Below are positions 18,834 through 61,562 of a stretch of 64,000 nt of DNA, piece by piece. How positions within the stretch are numbered: position 1 is the stretch's first letter; each line of letters begins with the position of its first letter. The translations under genes were made by a program, and so were the position numbers. The notes under the pieces were generated by a model that was not told the DNA's origin, did not search any database, and was given only the letters and a program-made list of their open reading frames with translations. Source of the DNA: Candidatus Magasanikiibacteriota bacterium. GTDB taxonomy: Bacteria > Patescibacteriota > Patescibacteriia > Magasanikbacterales > GWA2-37-8. The stretch spans positions 204,736-268,735 of the forward strand of contig JAGOQR010000002.1 of the NCBI GenBank assembly GCA_017991415.1, in the 5' to 3' direction.

Positions 18834-18930
18834 ACCAAAATAAAAATCTATAACAAATAGTAAAAATATTATACCACAAAGAACAAAAACAAAAAACTCA
18901 CCAATTTTGATAGTGAGTTTTTTAATGTGT

Positions 18931-19011
18931 GCCGAAGGAGAGAATCGAACTCTCATGGATTTCTCCGCACGATTTTGAGTCGTGTGCGTCTACCAATTCC
19001 GCCACTTCGGC
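18931..19011 (-). tRNA. tRNA-Leu (anticodon CAA), type II with a long variable arm
   Basis: Minus strand GCCGAAGTGGCGGAATTGGTAGACGCACACGACTCAAAATCGTGCGGAGAAATCCATGAGAGTTCGATTCTCTCCTTCGGCA. It has a 7-bp acceptor stem, anticodon loop CUCAAAA, a long variable arm and T-loop TTCGATT. No encoded CCA. Confidence 0.85.
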
Positions 19012-19030: not shown

Positions 19031-19059
19031 ATTATAATCTAGGCTTACTTGTTTGTCAA
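19031..19059 (-). promoter_or_regulatory. Consensus sigma70 promoter TTGACA-17-TATAAT driving tRNA-Leu (and probably parAB)
   Basis: Minus strand TTGACAaacaagtaagcctagatTATAAT, ending ~20 nt upstream of the tRNA 5' end. Confidence 0.7.
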
Positions 19060-19081
19060 TCTAGGGTATAAAAATAATGAA

Positions 19082-19103
19082 CCCAGCGTTGTGACACGCT
19101 GGG
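19082..19103 (-). terminator. GC-rich hairpin CCCAGCGT-TGTGAC-ACGCTGGG followed by a U-rich tract on the minus strand (terminator of the GC-rich island operon)
   Basis: 8-bp perfect stem. The minus-strand downstream sequence is UUCAUUAUUUUUAU. Confidence 0.55.
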
Positions 19104-19175
19104 CAGAACTTCCGCACCTGCAACCAGACCTTGCGATCTCGACCAGGTGACCTTCCCCTCCTTCCGTGCGACTCT

Positions 19176-19523
19176 TCAGCGTCGCTCGCCCAGCGCCTTG
19201 AGCGTCTGGCGAATCGTCTGATGACGACTCGGACTTGAGCTGAGCTTGGCATCTTGAATGGTCTTGGCGACCCCCTCCATGCCAGGACACAGCTCCTGAA
19301 ACCAGTTCGACGCCTCGAAGGCGGCGGCGGCCATCACCTCGTCGGTGTAGGCCAACTGATTCTCCGCCCACTGAGGCAGATGATCGCAGAACACACGAAC
19401 CTTGCTCTGCAGATCTTGGAGCTTGACGAGCTCCGACTGCTGCTTGGCACTGTTGTCGCTGGCGCCCGAAGAGCACGCAGCAACGAGGGACACGATGGCC
19501 GTGACGATGAAGACGGTCTTCAC
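19176..19523 (-). CDS. Small lipoprotein (GC-rich island gene 3), hypothetical
   Basis: Signal peptide plus lipobox (MKTVFIVTAIVSLVAACSSG). A GTG start overlaps the TGA stop of the upstream gene (GTGA). GC3-rich codons. Confidence 0.5.
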   Translation of the reverse strand: MKTVFIVTAIVSLVAACSSGASDNSAKQQSELVKLQDLQSKVRVFCDHLPQWAENQLAYTDEVMAAAAFEASNWFQELCPGMEGVAKTIQDAKLSSSPSRHQTIRQTLKALGERR

Positions 19524-20851
19524 GACTCGTCCTCCCGCTCATTGCCTTCGAGACCCGGAATGACGAACATGCCTCGCATCATCTTCTCCCTCTCCTTCTG
19601 ATCCTTCTTCTTCTGGTCTTCCTTCTTCTGCGAATCGTCCACGAAGTCAGCCAGCTCCTCGTCCCTGCTGTGCTTGAGCTTCACCCACGCATCGCCGGCA
19701 TCGCCGCGCCAGGGGGTCGACGCACTTTCGTTGTCAGCCCCGTAGAACTTGATGACATGGGACACGGACTCCTTACCTCGCTTTGCCTCCATCTCTGCGA
19801 TCGCCATCTTGTGCATGGCGGCGGGGACGAACCTGATGAACCGCAGCGTTTCAGGAGTGGTCCCTTCGGGTGCACCGTTCAACTCGAGCTGAGAACGACG
19901 AGCGACGTAGCCCTCGAGGAGAACCACCATCCGCTCACCCGGCTTGAATTCCACGATTCGGTACTGCCCCATGTCCTCCCCGAACTGCAGGTCCTTCTGA
20001 ACCTCGCCGAGCCGACACGCCTCGAACTGCTCGAGGAGCCACTGCACATTCGAGACGAACGCCTCGATGCTGGTGGTCTGCTTGTCCTGGATCGCCTCCA
20101 AGAAAGCGCGCTTCCAGTTGTGGGTCTTACCTCCGATGCTGTCGAACATGACGCTGATCATGTCGGAGACACCCCCTTCGAGAACATCCAGGTAGACCTG
20201 GCTGTTCTCGGGGTGTTCCCCGTTCGGCAGGCGCACATCGCGCAACTTCGTACGCAACACCTGACCACCGATCGCCACCACCTGCTCCATACCACTCGCA
20301 ACATCCACGATGACCCCGGCAGTCCTGGGCGCGACCGTGGCAATATGCCACGCCTCGCTCTCGAGCGCCTTGGCCCAGGAGGCAACGACCGGCTTGAAGA
20401 ACGCCATACTTCCGAGGAACATCATGTCGGCGAACCCATCGAGCAAGCGCTGCCGATGCATCTTCTCGAGGATCCGACCGATCCGGATGCGCACGAAGGC
20501 CGCGTGCACCCGCTGCCCCAGGAGACCCAACTGCAGGATGATCTTGTCCGTGAGGTTCGCGGCCTGCTCGGCATCGAGCGAACACTCGTCCGTATCACCC
20601 TGCGAGCCGTTGGGACCACAGGGGTCAACCGCATCGACGTAGCCGTCGCCGGTCATCGTGACCTCGCGCGAGCTAGCCGTCACGGGCTGCTTCCTCGGCG
20701 GAAGCCCCTGGGTGAGCGTACGCTTCCCAGGAGCCGACGACGACCGCCGCCGCGCCGAACCACCCGCACCAGCACGGTGCGAGGTGTCGCGAGTAGTGTC
20801 CGCCGCATCATCCGAAGCCGTACCACTGTCCTGAAGCTTGTCGTAGCCCAT
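19520..20851 (-). CDS. Hypothetical ~443-aa protein (GC-rich island gene 2); disordered S/T/G/R-rich N-terminus, KE-rich acidic tail; no recognisable family
   Basis: Long GC3-rich ORF. The most plausible start is ATG at 20851 (MGYDKLQ), preceded by AAGGAAG 7 nt upstream. The track ORF extends to 20938 through the promoter region. No Walker motifs or other signatures recognised. Confidence 0.5.
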   Translation of the reverse strand: MGYDKLQDSGTASDDAADTTRDTSHRAGAGGSARRRSSSAPGKRTLTQGLPPRKQPVTASSREVTMTGDGYVDAVDPCGPNGSQGDTDECSLDAEQAANLTDKIILQLGLLGQRVHAAFVRIRIGRILEKMHRQRLLDGFADMMFLGSMAFFKPVVASWAKALESEAWHIATVAPRTAGVIVDVASGMEQVVAIGGQVLRTKLRDVRLPNGEHPENSQVYLDVLEGGVSDMISVMFDSIGGKTHNWKRAFLEAIQDKQTTSIEAFVSNVQWLLEQFEACRLGEVQKDLQFGEDMGQYRIVEFKPGERMVVLLEGYVARRSQLELNGAPEGTTPETLRFIRFVPAAMHKMAIAEMEAKRGKESVSHVIKFYGADNESASTPWRGDAGDAWVKLKHSRDEELADFVDDSQKKEDQKKKDQKEREKMMRGMFVIPGLEGNEREDES

Positions 20852-20928
20852 GGCACACTTCCTTGGGATGCGACGAAGCACCCCTATTTCACACGGGTTG
20901 GTTTGAACAACTTTGCAAACTAATAGTA

Positions 20929-20957
20929 GTCTTACCACGTTTTACCCATTTTGTCAA
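20929..20957 (-). promoter_or_regulatory. Putative promoter (TTGACAAA -35, TGgTAAGAC extended -10) for island gene 2, located in an AT-rich spacer
   Basis: Minus strand TTGACAaaatgggtaaaacgTGgTAAGAC. The -35 is identical to other host promoters in the window. Confidence 0.35.
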
Positions 20958-21008
20958 TGTAACCACGTCCGATTTAAATTCAAAAAATAAAAATGTATAA
21001 AAAAAATA

Positions 21009-21036
21009 AAGTAGTTTATTATAATAAACTACTTTA
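21009..21036 (-). terminator. Perfect 28-nt AT-rich palindrome AAAGTAGTTTATTATAATAAACTACTTT followed by a U-run on the minus strand (terminator of island gene 1)
   Basis: Stem of ~12 bp. The minus-strand downstream sequence is AUUUUUUUUAUACAUUUUUAUUUUUUG. Confidence 0.55.
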
Positions 21037-21099
21037 TAAAGTCCACGATAACCTCTTGCTTGGCACGCGTCGTGGTTGCACGCGCCAAATTGTTGTCCT

Positions 21100-22104
21100 C
21101 TACACCAAACCAAAGAGCACTGCTGAAGCTAGCGAAGTGACCAGAAGCGCCACGCCAGCGATTAGCACCAACCGATTGAATCGGCTAGGCTGCTCAAGCT
21201 GCTCAACAGGCGCGGGCAAAGTCGGCTCGCAGAGCACATGATCAGGCAACCGCCCTCTCACGCACAGGTAGTGAGCCCCAGCACCGATATGGTGCTGCAT
21301 GTCCACCCAGATGAGCAGAACAAGTTTCCGCAACTTTTCGGGGAAGCGCGGCAATCCATCTCGCCACACATTCGTCTTGGCGAGTGCGTGAAGGCACAGA
21401 TCTTGCCAATTCACCTTCACCACGAGCGAGCCCTCCGAACTATCGTTTACGGTCGTGGTCCAAGCACCGTCTGGCGCCGCTTCATCGAGGAGGCGCTTCA
21501 ATTCCTCGAGAAATCCCAGCCAAGAAAGTTCCAGTGCCACCTGAACGGTTGGCATACTGGCCTCCTTACTTGGCAAGATTGGTATTGCAAACCGCACAGT
21601 CTGCAATGCAAATGCAGGACTGGGAGGCGGCGGCGTTTCAACAAACAGCAGTGTCCTTCGACGGGCGGGCTTGAGATCTTCATCACGAATACGATTCGTA
21701 TGACCCTCATCGTCCAACACCGCTACGACAGCACCGCTGTTCACTGCATCACGAGTATCGTCATCAAAGGAGCCGATGACACCTCCCCCAAGGGAGAGGA
21801 GCTCATCAAGCGACGTGCTATTCGGAGGCCGCAACGGACCACCCGGCGTCGGCGGCAAGCTGCTGGCTTCGGTTGACTCTGCATCAACCTGCATCGGCAC
21901 ATCCTGAACCAATATTTCTGCCGGCACAGGAGTACGAACCGTCTCAGCACCCTCACCAAACGCCTCAGCCCTTTCTCCCAGGGCAGAATCAGGATTTTTC
22001 ACCATGACCATTGCCTCTCTGGGAGATTCCACTGCGCTTGTGGCGCGGTCTCCCAACCTTTTTCCATTGTAAGCTCTTTTCTCTTGGTGCACTTCGCACA
22101 ACAA
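21100..22104 (-). CDS. Hypothetical C-terminally membrane-anchored protein (GC-rich island gene 1); Pro/acidic-rich N-terminal half
   Basis: GC3-rich ORF. The C-terminal 22 residues (LVLIAGVALLVTSLASAVLFGLV) form a TM helix at the extreme C-terminus. The track start is a TTG; an ATG with a GAGAGG SD at ~22017 (MVMVKNPD) is more plausible. No recognisable domain. Confidence 0.45.
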   Translation of the reverse strand: MLCEVHQEKRAYNGKRLGDRATSAVESPREAMVMVKNPDSALGERAEAFGEGAETVRTPVPAEILVQDVPMQVDAESTEASSLPPTPGGPLRPPNSTSLDELLSLGGGVIGSFDDDTRDAVNSGAVVAVLDDEGHTNRIRDEDLKPARRRTLLFVETPPPPSPAFALQTVRFAIPILPSKEASMPTVQVALELSWLGFLEELKRLLDEAAPDGAWTTTVNDSSEGSLVVKVNWQDLCLHALAKTNVWRDGLPRFPEKLRKLVLLIWVDMQHHIGAGAHYLCVRGRLPDHVLCEPTLPAPVEQLEQPSRFNRLVLIAGVALLVTSLASAVLFGLV

Positions 22105-40187: not shown

Positions 40188-41378
40188 TTATTTAATAATT
40201 TTAGTTACAACTCCAGCACCTACTGTTTTACCACCTTCGCGGATAGCAAAGTTCATTTTATCTTCCATGGCTACAGGAGTGATTAGTTTAACTACGAAGC
40301 TAATAGTATCACCAGGCATAACCATTTCAGTTCCTGCTGGTAATTCTACTTCTCCAGTTACATCGGTAGTTCTAATATAGAACTGTGGTTTATAACCTTT
40401 GAAGAATGGCTTATGTCTTCCACCTTCTTCTTTAGTCAAGATATAAACTTGAGCTTCAAATTCAGTGTGAGGAGTAATAGTACCCGGTTTGGCAATAACC
40501 ATACCGCGCTCTACTTCTTCTTTTTTAGTACCGCGGAGCAACAAACCTACGTTATCTCCAGCTTGACCCTCTTTTAATTGCTTGTTAAACATCTCAACAC
40601 CAGTAATAGTAGTCTTGCCGATAGCTTCACTCATACCTACAATTGAAGCTTCGTCATTGATATGAACGATACCGCGTTCCATACGACCTGTAACTACAGT
40701 ACCACGACCTTCGATTGAGAATACGTCTTCAATAGGCATGAGGAAAGGCTTGTCAGTATCACGCACAGGTTGAGGAATATATTCATCTACAGCCTTCATA
40801 AGATCCATAACTGGCTTAGCAGCTGTTTCATCGGTTGGGTTTTGTAAAGCTTGAAGAGCTGAACCACGGATAATTGGGGTGGTGTCGCCTGGGAATTCGT
40901 ATTTTTTAAGCAAATCACGAACTTCAGCTTCTACCAAGTCGATAAGTTCTGGATCAGAAACTTGATCAACTTTGTTCAAGAAAACAACAATGTAAGGCAC
41001 ACCTACCTGGCGAGCTAACAAGATATGTTCTCTAGTCTGAGGCATCGGACCATCAGCAGCAGAAACAACAAGAATAGCGCCGTCCATCTGAGCAGCACCA
41101 GTAATCATGTTTTTTACATAGTCCGCGTGACCTGGACAGTCTACGTGGGCATAGTGACGGTTGTCTGTTTCGTACTCAACGTGAGCAGTAGAAATGGTAA
41201 TACCACGAGCTTTTGACTCTGGAGATTTATCCAAATCATCTACACCTTTGTTTGAAGCAGCTCCACCACGACTGCGCAAAACTGACAAAATTGCAGCAGT
41301 TAAGGTAGTTTTACCATGGTCAACGTGACCAATAGTACCAATGTTTACGTGTGGCTTGTTTCTAATAAACTCAGCCAT
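40188..41378 (-). CDS. tuf: Elongation factor Tu
   Basis: [25 protein letters not shown]; 396 aa. Confidence 0.97.
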
Positions 41379-60067: not shown

Positions 60068-60069
60068 TA

Positions 60070-60096
60070 AAAAATCCCCCTTCGGGGATTTTTTAT
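60070..60096 (+). terminator. tgt terminator AAAAATCCCC-TTCG-GGGGATTTTTT
   Basis: Perfect stem plus T-run 2 nt after the tgt stop. Confidence 0.75.
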
Positions 60097-60130
60097 TAGC
60101 TAAAATAAGCAAAATTTTAATAGCCTACCC

Positions 60131-60159
60131 TTGACTTTTACTAAAAAAAGTATTACTAT
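60131..60159 (+). promoter_or_regulatory. Promoter TTGACT-17-TACTAT immediately upstream of the GC-rich element
   Basis: ttgactTTTACTAAAAAAAGTATtactat. The predicted TSS is ~60166. Confidence 0.5.
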
Positions 60160-60165
60160 CTAGCC

Positions 60166-60476
60166 AGTTGCAAATGGTCGGCATTGCCGATTTTCTGCCC
60201 AACCCCAGAGGCCCACATGACCCAGCTCATTGCTGCTCTTGTCTGGATACTAGGCGCCTTGCCGCCGATCCCCACGACCCTGCAGGTTCCACCCCTCCAA
60301 GAGGTGGTCTACCCCGGTCAGCGAAGAACTGGCGGCAAGCGACACACGCCACAACGCCACCGCCCTCGGTCGAACCGAACAGAAGAGCGACGCAAGCTAC
60401 GGCGTGACGCTCGACATCCCAAGTGCGAGTGAGCCTCTCCGGCCACACCCTCCGACCATACGGTCGAGGGTGTGGC
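60166..60476 (+). ncRNA. ~310-nt GC-rich (~60 %) highly structured transcribed element of unknown identity (candidate ncRNA or long structured leader of rlmH)
   Basis: The GC-rich segment starts ~7 nt after a plus-strand promoter -10 and ends in an 11-bp hairpin (GCCACACCCTC...GAGGGTGTGGC, 60442-60476), 12 nt before the rlmH ATG. There is no plausible ORF. It contains many local hairpins (TCGGCATTGCCGA, CCACCcctccaagaGGTGG, GAGCGACGC...GCGTgaCGCTC). Confidence 0.3.
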
Positions 60477-60488
60477 AAAAAAATTACT

Positions 60489-60965
60489 ATGATCCATATA
60501 CATCTTATTATTTTGGGAAAACTCAAAGAAAAATTCTGGCAAGAAGCCGAAGCTGAATATCTAAAACGTTTACAGCCGTGGGCAAAAATTACTATATACG
60601 AACTAAAGGAAGAATCTTTTTCTGAAAAAAATAATCCAGAACAAATCAAACAAAAAGAAGCAAATAAAATTTTGGGTGCTGTTCATAAAATAAAAGCCAG
60701 CTACACCATTATTTTGGACGAACATGGTAAGCAATTTTCTTCGGTTAACTTGGCGCAACAACTCAAACAAATTTCGGATACTACTCACAACCTTACATTT
60801 ATCCTTGGCGGACCACTTGGATTGCACGAAAGCATTTTAAAACAAGCAAACTTAAAACTCTCTCTTTCGTCACTAACCTTTACCCACCAAATGGCGCGTG
60901 TATTTTTATGGGAACAAATCTACCGAGCCATGACAATTATAAGCGGCAAAAAATATCATTATTAA
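60489..60965 (+). CDS. rlmH: 23S rRNA (pseudouridine1915-N3)-methyltransferase RlmH (SPOUT)
   Basis: MIHIHLIILGKLKEKFWQEAEAEYLKRL...ILDEHGKQFSSVNLAQ...FILGGPLGL. The start is set at ATG 60489. The track ORF begins inside the GC-rich element. Confidence 0.85.
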   Translation: MIHIHLIILGKLKEKFWQEAEAEYLKRLQPWAKITIYELKEESFSEKNNPEQIKQKEANKILGAVHKIKASYTIILDEHGKQFSSVNLAQQLKQISDTTHNLTFILGGPLGLHESILKQANLKLSLSSLTFTHQMARVFLWEQIYRAMTIISGKKYHY

Positions 60966-60972
60966 ACAAATA

Positions 60973-60999
60973 AAAAAAGAGCGTATACGCTCTTTTTTT
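60973..60999. terminator. Bidirectional terminator AAAAAAAGAGCGTATACGCTCTTTTTTT
   Basis: Perfect palindrome after the rlmH stop. Confidence 0.75.
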
Positions 61000-61091
61000 A
61001 TTTGTTCTATGTACCACGCACCCTGTGATATATACAATCAAAGCGGAAACAGCTTGCAAGCAAACCGCCTCACGCACCTAACTACCACTAT

Positions 61092-61562
61092 CTAATTCCA
61101 ACGTGCTTTGTCACGTTCGGATTTGACCACAATCCACGTGCCAAACCGTATTACCTGGAGACTAAGCCACTCTTCAAACTGCGAAGCACTCATTCCCTTG
61201 GGAACCTTGAGCGCTGCAATATCAGCTCTTTGCTGCGCCAGTGCTTGTCGCAATTTCTTGCCTCGAAACATTTTCCCAGAAGAACCGGGGATATAGTGAG
61301 GCTGAAAGACAAGAAAGGCGAGGTTGCCAATATCGAAAGGATCGATATCGAGCATCTGCTCCTGATCGAGCGTTAGCTGATTCTTGAGCAAGACATAGAG
61401 AAGTAGGTGCACGTGCACACTACTATTCTTTGTATCTACTTTCCCGCCCATGACGCCTCCTTCTACCAAGGGTAGATTATAATAGTTGATAGTATATCCT
61501 ATTGAACCAAAAGCAAAGATACGCTTCGCCTGGTCACAACATAGGACCAATCTATATATCAT
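61092..61562 (-). CDS. Hypothetical protein (156 aa)
   Basis: Intact ORF convergent with rlmH. No confident family assignment. Confidence 0.35.
   Translation of the reverse strand: MIYRLVLCCDQAKRIFAFGSIGYTINYYNLPLVEGGVMGGKVDTKNSSVHVHLLLYVLLKNQLTLDQEQMLDIDPFDIGNLAFLVFQPHYIPGSSGKMFRGKKLRQALAQQRADIAALKVPKGMSASQFEEWLSLQVIRFGTWIVVKSERDKARWN

Follow-up and report, generated by a model that had tools for sequence, protein, structure and literature searches.

A GC-rich stretch lies immediately 5′ of the rlmH gene in the 64-kb DNA analysed here (the window, meaning the whole of that DNA; all coordinates are window positions). On the evidence of the RlmH homologues, the window belongs to Candidatus Magasanikbacteria, within the Candidate Phyla Radiation (CPR, Patescibacteria). 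Judged from the letters alone, the stretch had been taken for a non-coding RNA (ncRNA) or a long cis-regulatory leader in which no credible open reading frame (ORF) exists. The latter claim is contradicted by a 71-codon ORF with a Shine-Dalgarno (SD) site at 60207-60432. My reading, to which I give a probability of roughly 0.62, is that the GC-rich stretch is an overlooked gene of 71 codons, which would encode a very basic protein and form a two-gene unit with rlmH. The locus is laid out as follows.

60067: end of tgt (from the ORF list).
60068-60096, plus strand: intrinsic terminator of tgt, a hairpin and a T-run with an A-run on the other flank (read from the sequence).
60099-60110, plus strand: GCTAAAATAAGC motif 5′ of the -35 box, identical in four close copies.
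60131-60159, plus strand: sigma-70-type promoter TTGACT-17-TACTAT (promoter scan and sequence).
60170-60198, plus strand: two-tier stem-loop in the 5′ untranslated region (5′UTR; RNAalifold).
60207-60211, plus strand: SD site AGAGG, 5 nt 5′ of the small-ORF ATG.
60217-60432, plus strand: putative small ORF of 71 codons, product MTQLIAALVWILGALPPIPTTLQVPPLQEVVYPGQRRTGGKRHTPQRHRPRSNRTEERRKLRRDARHPKCE (codon pattern and conservation).
60442-60476, plus strand: intercistronic hairpin (RNAalifold and folding).
60477-60488, plus strand: A-rich unpaired spacer AAAAAAATTACT from the hairpin to the rlmH start, without an SD site.
60489-60965, plus strand: rlmH, 23S rRNA m3-pseudouridine-1915 methyltransferase, 158 aa (homologues with Pfam PF02590, named RlmH).
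60972-61000, plus strand: intrinsic terminator of rlmH, AAAAAAAGAGCGTATACGCTCTTTTTTT, a hairpin followed by a T-run (read directly from the sequence).

The tgt terminator is the upstream boundary of the small ORF-rlmH unit and the rlmH terminator is the downstream boundary. The terminator scanner assigned the tgt terminator-like site to the minus strand, and the rlmH terminator at 60972-61000 is absent from its list. The promoter at 60131-60159 had already been noticed in the sequence-only reading, and the promoter scan finds it at the same place. Since there is no other promoter in the 56 nt preceding rlmH and the intercistronic hairpin has no U-tract, transcription should continue into rlmH; the earlier expectation of read-through at a hairpin that is not a canonical terminator thus holds. 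rlmH is probably the second gene on the resulting mRNA. The small ORF makes up ~216 of the ~325 transcribed nt 5′ of rlmH and is preceded by a leader of ~50 nt.

Is this arrangement found in relatives? The rlmH-flanking DNA of relatives was drawn from genome and metagenome collections. A GC-rich cassette of ~300 nt was found directly 5′ of rlmH in 13 further loci (L002, L003, L004 (=L035), L006, L034, L036, L037, L038, L040, L042, L043, L044 and L045), so that 14 copies are available in total; the window, L034, L036 and L037 are the close copies. The shared layout is a leader of ~30-60 nt, an SD site, an ORF of 50-72 codons, a spacer of 5-40 nt, a hairpin, a further 9-21 nt, and the rlmH ATG. 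In L043, homopolymer runs (poly-G, poly-T and poly-A) and a stretch of N are found between the small ORF and the hairpin (~1834-2000). They probably stem from faulty assembly, and the 230-nt distance from the stop codon to rlmH in that locus is therefore not to be trusted.

The cassette is absent in seven loci (L001, L005, L007, L026, L046, L047, and the more distant L012/L014), and a metagenome scan with RlmH gave, beyond the loci already collected, only one more relative, which has no cassette. In L005 and L026, tgt nearly abuts rlmH, and in L001 and L007 a TTGACT-type promoter lies directly before rlmH. Where present, the cassette is always immediately 5′ of rlmH, also where the other neighbour is not tgt. 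Since this upstream neighbour varies (tgt, a small minus-strand gene, or a 778-aa gene), the cassette travels with rlmH. On a rough neighbour-joining tree of RlmH, the cassette genomes form one clade with nested absences, which suggests that the cassette was ancestral in the clade and was lost there on at least three occasions.

In most of the other cassette copies, a TTGAC(T/A)-17/18-TAnnnT promoter was read at the equivalent position. The GCTAAAATAAGC motif, ~20 nt 5′ of the -35 box, is recognisable in L038 as GCTAAAATAAGC and in L044 as GCTAACATAAGC, while the adjacent intergenic sequence is far less conserved. This motif may be an UP element or an operator bound by a regulator.

Because GC-rich DNA holds chance ORFs, the substitution patterns of the small ORF were examined. 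The differences at codon positions 1, 2 and 3 number 6/6/26 between the window and L037 (chi-square p=2.7e-5), 5/12/22 between L036 and L034 (p=0.004), and 9/9/19 in another comparison. The ratio of nonsynonymous to synonymous rates (dN/dS) is 0.14-0.34 over six close pairs. For the window/L034 pair, the out-of-phase frames gave 0.63-2.2; one antisense frame gave 0.27 but contains internal stop codons. Along the small ORF, the ratio of nonsynonymous to synonymous proportions (pN/pS) is low at both ends, 0.17 over residues 1-44 and 0.15 over the last ten, and rises to 0.64 between them (residues 45-62). In the alignments of close relatives, all indels within the ORF keep the frame, with lengths of 3 nt in the window clade and 6 nt in L002/L004, while the flanks of the same alignments have indels of 1-3, 2 or 8 nt.

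The signals for translation are conserved as well. An SD-like core (GAGG, GGAGG or GGGAGG) lies 4-9 nt 5′ of an ATG or GTG in all 14 copies, with the GAGG core invariant in alignment A6, and in every copy the ORF has 50-72 codons and its stop codon lies 5′ of the hairpin. Only 4 of the 44 long ORFs of the window (at least 150 aa, in a crude ATG-only gene set in which some starts may be misplaced) have an SD-like site, counted as a core 3-12 nt before the start. Thus, the strong and conserved SD site of the small ORF is unusual in this genome. Most starts in the window lie in AT-rich sequence with no SD site, and the EF-Tu gene (40188-41378, minus strand) is among the few with an SD-like site.

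In three relatives, gene callers independently predicted exactly this small ORF from start to stop (P0001, P0002 and P0123). All three entries are without a name, and P0001 is the L034 orthologue. Elsewhere, the cassette seems to have been hidden by the annotation of its neighbour. The RlmH entries P0003, P0010, P0019, P0022, P0025, P0034 and P0081 are 169-253 aa in length, against a true length of ~158 aa, and these long entries are start-site artefacts. In the six loci that were checked, the stop-poor GC-rich cassette is read as an N-terminal extension of RlmH, and a GTG at 60423 produces the same artefact in the window, a 180-aa ORF with a spurious N-terminal extension.

The small ORFs of L002 (3752-3934) and L004 (3750-3926) deserve a separate mention. 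Their ends are almost identical, the leader and the first 17 codons being 97-98% the same, while the middle third is scrambled to the point of being almost unalignable and yet stays in frame. A similar patchy divergence is seen within rlmH of these two loci. Relaxed constraint, recombination or diversifying selection may be responsible.

The predicted product of the window has a 12-residue hydrophobic N-terminal helix, Gly13, a Pro-rich linker and an Arg-rich tail, with an isoelectric point (pI) of ~12 and a net charge of +10. All 14 products are very basic (pI 10.0-12.0, net charge +5 to +15), begin with a hydrophobic stretch of 9-19 residues and end in an Arg-rich tail. In the alignment of the 14 proteins, the Gly that follows the hydrophobic stretch (window residue 13) is invariant, and one Pro and one Arg are near-invariant. 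A spacer of ~35-55 aa separates the hydrophobic N-terminus from the C-terminus. The C-terminus is kept within close clades (RRDARHPK, pN/pS 0.15; AVRRRGxRGI) and not family-wide, and di-proline motifs occur in 11 of the 14 copies. AlphaFold placed helices at residues 2-13 and 54-66 with low confidence.

Searches with the small protein gave no match better than E=0.11 in Pfam or E=0.17 in NCBIfam, and none at E<=1 among PDB chains. HMMER against 1.84 billion representative proteins returned only P0001, and single-sequence and profile searches for remote homologues returned only orthologues of the same loci. An exact annotation look-up of 10 peptides gave one entry, P0123, with no name attached. 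Nothing relevant was found in the literature on rlmH-associated small proteins or on arginine-rich small proteins of the CPR. The small protein would thus appear to be a new, lineage-restricted orphan family, accompanied by two new mRNA stem-loops described below.

The first stem-loop lies in the 5′UTR. Its outer helix pairs GCA with TGC, and its inner helix (60177-60191) has the loop AUU; a local hairpin sequence pointed out earlier, TCGGCAtTGCCGA, was found here at 60178-60190. RNAalifold on eight copies gave 9 pairs, 4 of them with compensatory double changes, and only 1 of 72 cells is broken. In the close clade, the stem-loop is fully paired except for one G-U at the base of the inner helix. 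The second stem-loop is the intercistronic hairpin, which was found as the sequence-only reading had described it, followed by seven A residues (A7). It has 15 bp (11+4) with one bulge, the loop AUAC, and a folding energy of -30 kcal/mol. Its C-rich 5′ arm resembles an anti-SD sequence, and its 3′ arm, GAGGGUGUGGC, resembles an SD sequence. On nine copies, RNAalifold gave 14 pairs, 6 with compensatory double changes; in the close clade, pairing is 100% with one C-G to U-A swap. The more distant copies have analogous hairpins, and every one of the 14 copies has a hairpin (-20 to -32 kcal/mol) whose 3′ end is 9-21 nt from the rlmH ATG. No second copy of the intercistronic hairpin exists within the 64-kb window.

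In the window clade, the stop codon of the small ORF is 9 nt from the base of this hairpin, and rlmH starts 12 nt past it. The hairpin does not look like an intrinsic terminator, as A7 and not a U-tract follows it in the window; canonical hairpin and T-run terminators are used by this genome after tgt and rlmH. Among the relatives, the tract after the hairpin is A-rich in some and T-rich in others. Partial termination is possible in L042, L040, L043 and L006, which have T-runs. Nor does the hairpin sequester the start of rlmH, since the ATG and the preceding 12 nt are unpaired in the window. In most copies, 17-21 nt separate the SD-like 3′ arm from the rlmH ATG (9 nt only in L045), and for these copies the arm was rejected as the SD site of rlmH because of this spacing; rlmH has no SD site in the window, nor in the relatives without the cassette. 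The hairpin loop was also considered as a mimic of helix 69 (H69), the substrate of RlmH (loop region AUACGGUC), and this was rejected, as the loop differs among the closest relatives.

The base composition is as had been noticed. The stretch has ~63% GC (0.63-0.67 per 100 nt between 60200 and 60450), compared with 0.396 over the whole window, and it is the only patch of GC >=0.54 in the window apart from an island at 19-22 kb. The whole element folds better than dinucleotide shuffles (z -4.0 on the plus strand and -3.2 on the minus strand), in agreement with the claim that it is structured overall. The body of the small ORF alone has a mean z of ~-0.6 against such shuffles (range +0.6 to -2.9 over the 14 copies). 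When the minimum free energy structure of the window was mapped on the four-sequence alignment, 85.9% of the cells were paired, compared with 85.3% for shuffled partners. The internal helices, including the previously named CCACC..GGTGG and GAGCGACGC..GCGTgaCGCTC, lose pairs in close relatives, mostly without compensation. The favourable z of the whole element is due to the two conserved hairpins. The high GC of the element is that of Pro, Arg, Gly and Ala codons and of GC-ending synonymous codons, not that of a large RNA fold.

Several observations weigh against a plain two-gene reading. GC-rich DNA gives stop-free frames by chance, and several are present here in other frames. The protein similarity is weak family-wide, with a mean column identity of 34%; the most divergent members (L042, L043 and L045) are linked to the others mainly by position, architecture and one Gly, and the AlphaFold model has a predicted local distance difference test score (pLDDT) of only 63. 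Since the cassette appears to have been lost at least three times within the clade, it is dispensable. The distance from the stop codon to the hairpin ranges from 5 to 40 nt across copies, and thus no one geometric mechanism fits them all. Lastly, the third codon positions of the small ORF are 50-68% GC (GC3), compared with 29-37% in the neighbouring genes. Set against the preference of the EF-Tu gene for T-ending codons, those of the small ORF are rare ones. A plain protein gene leaves this high GC3 unaccounted for, which hints at selection on the RNA or on the speed of translation.

The high GC3 persists throughout a clade in which RlmH identity is down to 62-75%. Amino-acid composition does not explain GC at third positions, translational optimisation is ruled out by the T3-rich EF-Tu gene, and a conserved fold is ruled out by the z-scores of the ORF body and its unconserved helices. 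Possible causes are selection for a slowly translated message or for one that is generally compact and GC-rich.

The alternative that fares best is a regulatory upstream ORF (uORF). Here, the small ORF would be translated mainly to control rlmH. Ribosomes would slow or stall on the Pro/Arg-rich, rare-codon message, and their position relative to the hairpin would set the amount of RlmH, as a feedback from the state of the ribosome to an rRNA-modifying enzyme like that of the erm leaders or SecM/MifM. I regard this as unlikely, with a case that can be argued feature by feature. Arrest peptides have been defined by four criteria (PMC10987492): (i) a uORF of a sec or yidC gene, (ii) an N-terminal signal or transmembrane sequence, (iii) a C-terminus conserved among homologues, and (iv) a spacer of more than 30 aa. 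The hydrophobic N-terminus, the variable linker of more than 30 aa and the clade-conserved C-terminus (pN/pS 0.15) may agree with criteria ii-iv, while the downstream gene, against criterion i, is not sec or yidC; no C-terminal or arrest motif is common to the whole family, and the purifying selection on the N-terminal 44 residues (pN/pS 0.17) goes beyond the needs of a targeting signal. The di-proline motifs of 11/14 copies and the rare GC-ending codons, unlike those of EF-Tu, would suit a stalling message. The strong hairpin before rlmH has arms like an SD paired to an anti-SD, and in L045 the 3′ arm, GGGAGGAGG, is 9 nt from the rlmH ATG; in most copies, however, this arm at 17-21 nt lies beyond the spacing of a canonical SD, the hairpin takes in neither the rlmH start codon nor its A-rich leader, and most genes of the window, like rlmH even in cassette-free relatives, have no SD-like site. 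The stop-to-hairpin distance of 5-40 nt also speaks against a uORF of this kind. On the other side, the downstream gene encodes an rRNA methyltransferase, as in the erm systems.

A more specific form of this idea is that the small ORF and the hairpin are a ribosome-sensing attenuator for RlmH that works via the SD/anti-SD-like hairpin. Translation of the small ORF would then report the state of the ribosome pool, e.g., H69 modification or elongation capacity. I consider this quite improbable. If it were true, nascent-chain control in the style of erm or SecM would be extended to ribosome biogenesis, in an SD-poor organism.

The ncRNA or long leader proposed at the outset, with the ORF as a by-product of GC-rich sequence, now seems very improbable. 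What stands of that proposal is the dedicated promoter, the two covarying stem-loops recovered by RNAalifold, and the absence of a match to a known RNA family. What does not stand is the ~310-nt structured RNA, as ~216 of the ~325 nt are a small ORF that appears to be under purifying selection, the RNA of this ORF is no more structured than its composition predicts, and the helices predicted for it are not conserved. The z of -4.0, the GC enrichment at synonymous sites and a long-range helix of UUGCCGCC with GGCGGCAA, which has a G-C to A-U swap in L034, would all suit an RNA, and chance ORFs do arise in GC-rich DNA. However, codon periodicity and low dN/dS are confined to the SD-led frame and the stop-bearing antisense frame, the ORF indels are in frame, the SD site and start codon are conserved in 14/14 copies, and the z of the ORF body is ~-0.6. 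The internal helices break in close relatives with pairing equal to that of the shuffled control, and the scrambled middle third of L002/L004 retains at most one short local hairpin. There was no Rfam match in 60160-60480 even with permissive filters at E<=10, all matches at that setting lying on the two AT-rich terminators, and the sole gathering-level Rfam match in the window is tRNA-Leu at 18930-19011. ARAGORN found no tmRNA; together, Rfam and ARAGORN bear out the earlier statement that RNase P, tmRNA and 5S signatures are missing, and gave no SRP or 6S match either. An RNA of the minus strand was also considered, as this strand is G-rich and folds well (z -3.2). It was rejected because the conserved promoter, SD site and ORF are all on the plus strand and no minus-strand promoter was found.

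A type I toxin-like, membrane-active peptide silenced by mRNA structure or an antisense RNA is a highly improbable alternative, although no PADLOC or toxin-antitoxin library was searched. The hydrophobic N-terminal helix followed by a strongly cationic tail, the structured flanks of the mRNA, and the presence/absence variation of the cassette among relatives would be in keeping with it. The hydrophobic segment is only 9-19 residues, though; the SD site is exposed and not sequestered in the predicted folds; no minus-strand promoter was found over the ORF; and strict synteny before rlmH, across an RlmH identity of 62-75%, is rare for mobile toxin loci. That the element is foreign high-GC DNA in decay, perhaps with a tie to the 19-22 kb island, is scarcely credible: its GC is as strongly unlike the host as that of the island, but the two have no sequence similarity (blastn, word size 7), which leaves the shared origin once suggested with no support, the same locus, architecture and purifying selection are kept across a clade with RlmH at 62-75% identity, and neutral DNA would drift to the host composition and gain stops and frameshifts.

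The island itself (19045-22104) is 3 kb of 55-70% GC adjoining tRNA-Leu(CAA) at 18929-19011. Its minus-strand ORFs of 472 aa (19520-20938) and 334 aa (21100-22104) code for proteins rich in Arg, Ala and Gly. The island has the appearance of DNA that was acquired horizontally or integrated at a tRNA gene.

The neighbourhood of the unit is variable. The tgt-rlmH interval is a hot spot of variable content (L001, L007, L036, L038, L044, L046 and L047). Several relatives have a 93-96-aa minus-strand gene there, L046 has three small genes, and L047 has a 129-aa gene with matches to the Pfam families bAvd/23S_rRNA_IVP, a family linked to diversity-generating retroelements. Just 3′ of rlmH in the window, a 156-aa minus-strand ORF (61092-61562) lies in a moderately GC-rich patch (GC 0.44-0.51), and a 119-aa minus-strand gene with no Pfam match is found at the equivalent place in L037 and L038.

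Returning to the two-gene unit of a small basic protein and RlmH, I propose that it may work as follows. The conserved sigma-70 promoter would start the mRNA, whose leader would fold into the conserved stem-loop, and the strong SD site, of a kind rare in this genome, would drive translation of the small ORF. rlmH would be expressed by read-through from the same promoter. Judged by published ribosome footprints, a terminating ribosome should reach a hairpin 9 nt past the stop codon and yet leave it unmelted, and the hairpin would therefore remain as a barrier between the two cistrons. Its effect could be to shield the upstream message from 3′ decay, to damp the loading of 30S subunits at rlmH, or both, and more of the small protein than of RlmH would be produced as a result. 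For the protein, the most likely mode of action is contact of its basic tail with RNA or the ribosome, a guess from its composition and its partnership with rlmH, and the hydrophobic helix possibly anchors or pairs it. The roles given here to the hairpin and the protein are inferred only.

What this amounts to, in the first place, is a correction of the annotation class: an "intergenic" patch of high GC within an AT-rich genome of the CPR, with the look of a structured RNA, would be a fast-evolving small-protein gene, one which gene callers mostly overlook or fuse with its cassette to RlmH. Magasanikbacteria would thereby gain an orphan family of small basic proteins that is linked to an rRNA methyltransferase and comes with two covarying mRNA stem-loops. 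Should the protein bind the ribosome or the ORF regulate rlmH, the unit would bear on ribosome modification in reduced CPR cells. At present, it is a modest, lineage-specific finding known from sequence alone, and it would have greater weight if the regulatory reading were true.

How does the unit compare with known systems? The arrest peptides SecM, MifM and VemP belong to the monitoring-substrate class, and uORFs have been surveyed for such peptides (PMC7897499, PMC10987492). Like them, the unit has a small unannotated ORF directly 5′ of a housekeeping gene with predicted co-transcription; a hydrophobic N-terminus, a poorly conserved spacer of more than 30 aa and a C-terminus kept among close homologues; and a stable stem-loop between the stop codon and the next gene. 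Unlike in these systems, the downstream gene is rlmH in all copies, not sec or yidC. Moreover, the hairpin does not include the downstream start codon or a usable SD site in most copies, there is no family-wide arrest motif, and the hydrophobic segment is short.

The ermC and ermB attenuators also have a leader ORF and an mRNA hairpin 5′ of a 23S rRNA methyltransferase gene under one promoter; in the present case, translation of the ORF is predicted. The erm leaders are ~8-36 codons long, and alternative hairpins bury the SD site and start codon of the methylase. In contrast, the ORF described here has 50-72 codons and appears to be under purifying selection in its N-terminal two-thirds, the rlmH start is unpaired, and RlmH is a housekeeping and not a resistance enzyme. 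For the hairpin alone, there are parallels in the repetitive extragenic palindromic (REP) sequence of malE-malF and in the puf operon, where intercistronic stem-loops set differential expression within operons. As in those operons, a strong GC-rich hairpin with no U-tract lies between genes that are probably co-transcribed, just beyond the terminating ribosome. It differs from the malE-malF REP in being single-copy, locus-specific and conserved with its gene pair, rather than a dispersed repeat.

For the protein, the nearest class is that of bS21, bL34 and arginine-rich motif peptides, which are small, highly basic and associated with the ribosome or RNA. The small protein has no sequence similarity to them and carries a hydrophobic N-terminal helix, and it is patchy within one CPR lineage and fast evolving. 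It resembles them in its 50-72 aa, pI of 10-12 and Arg-rich tail; the strong SD site, set in an SD-poor genome, and the link to a ribosome-modifying enzyme are further likenesses.

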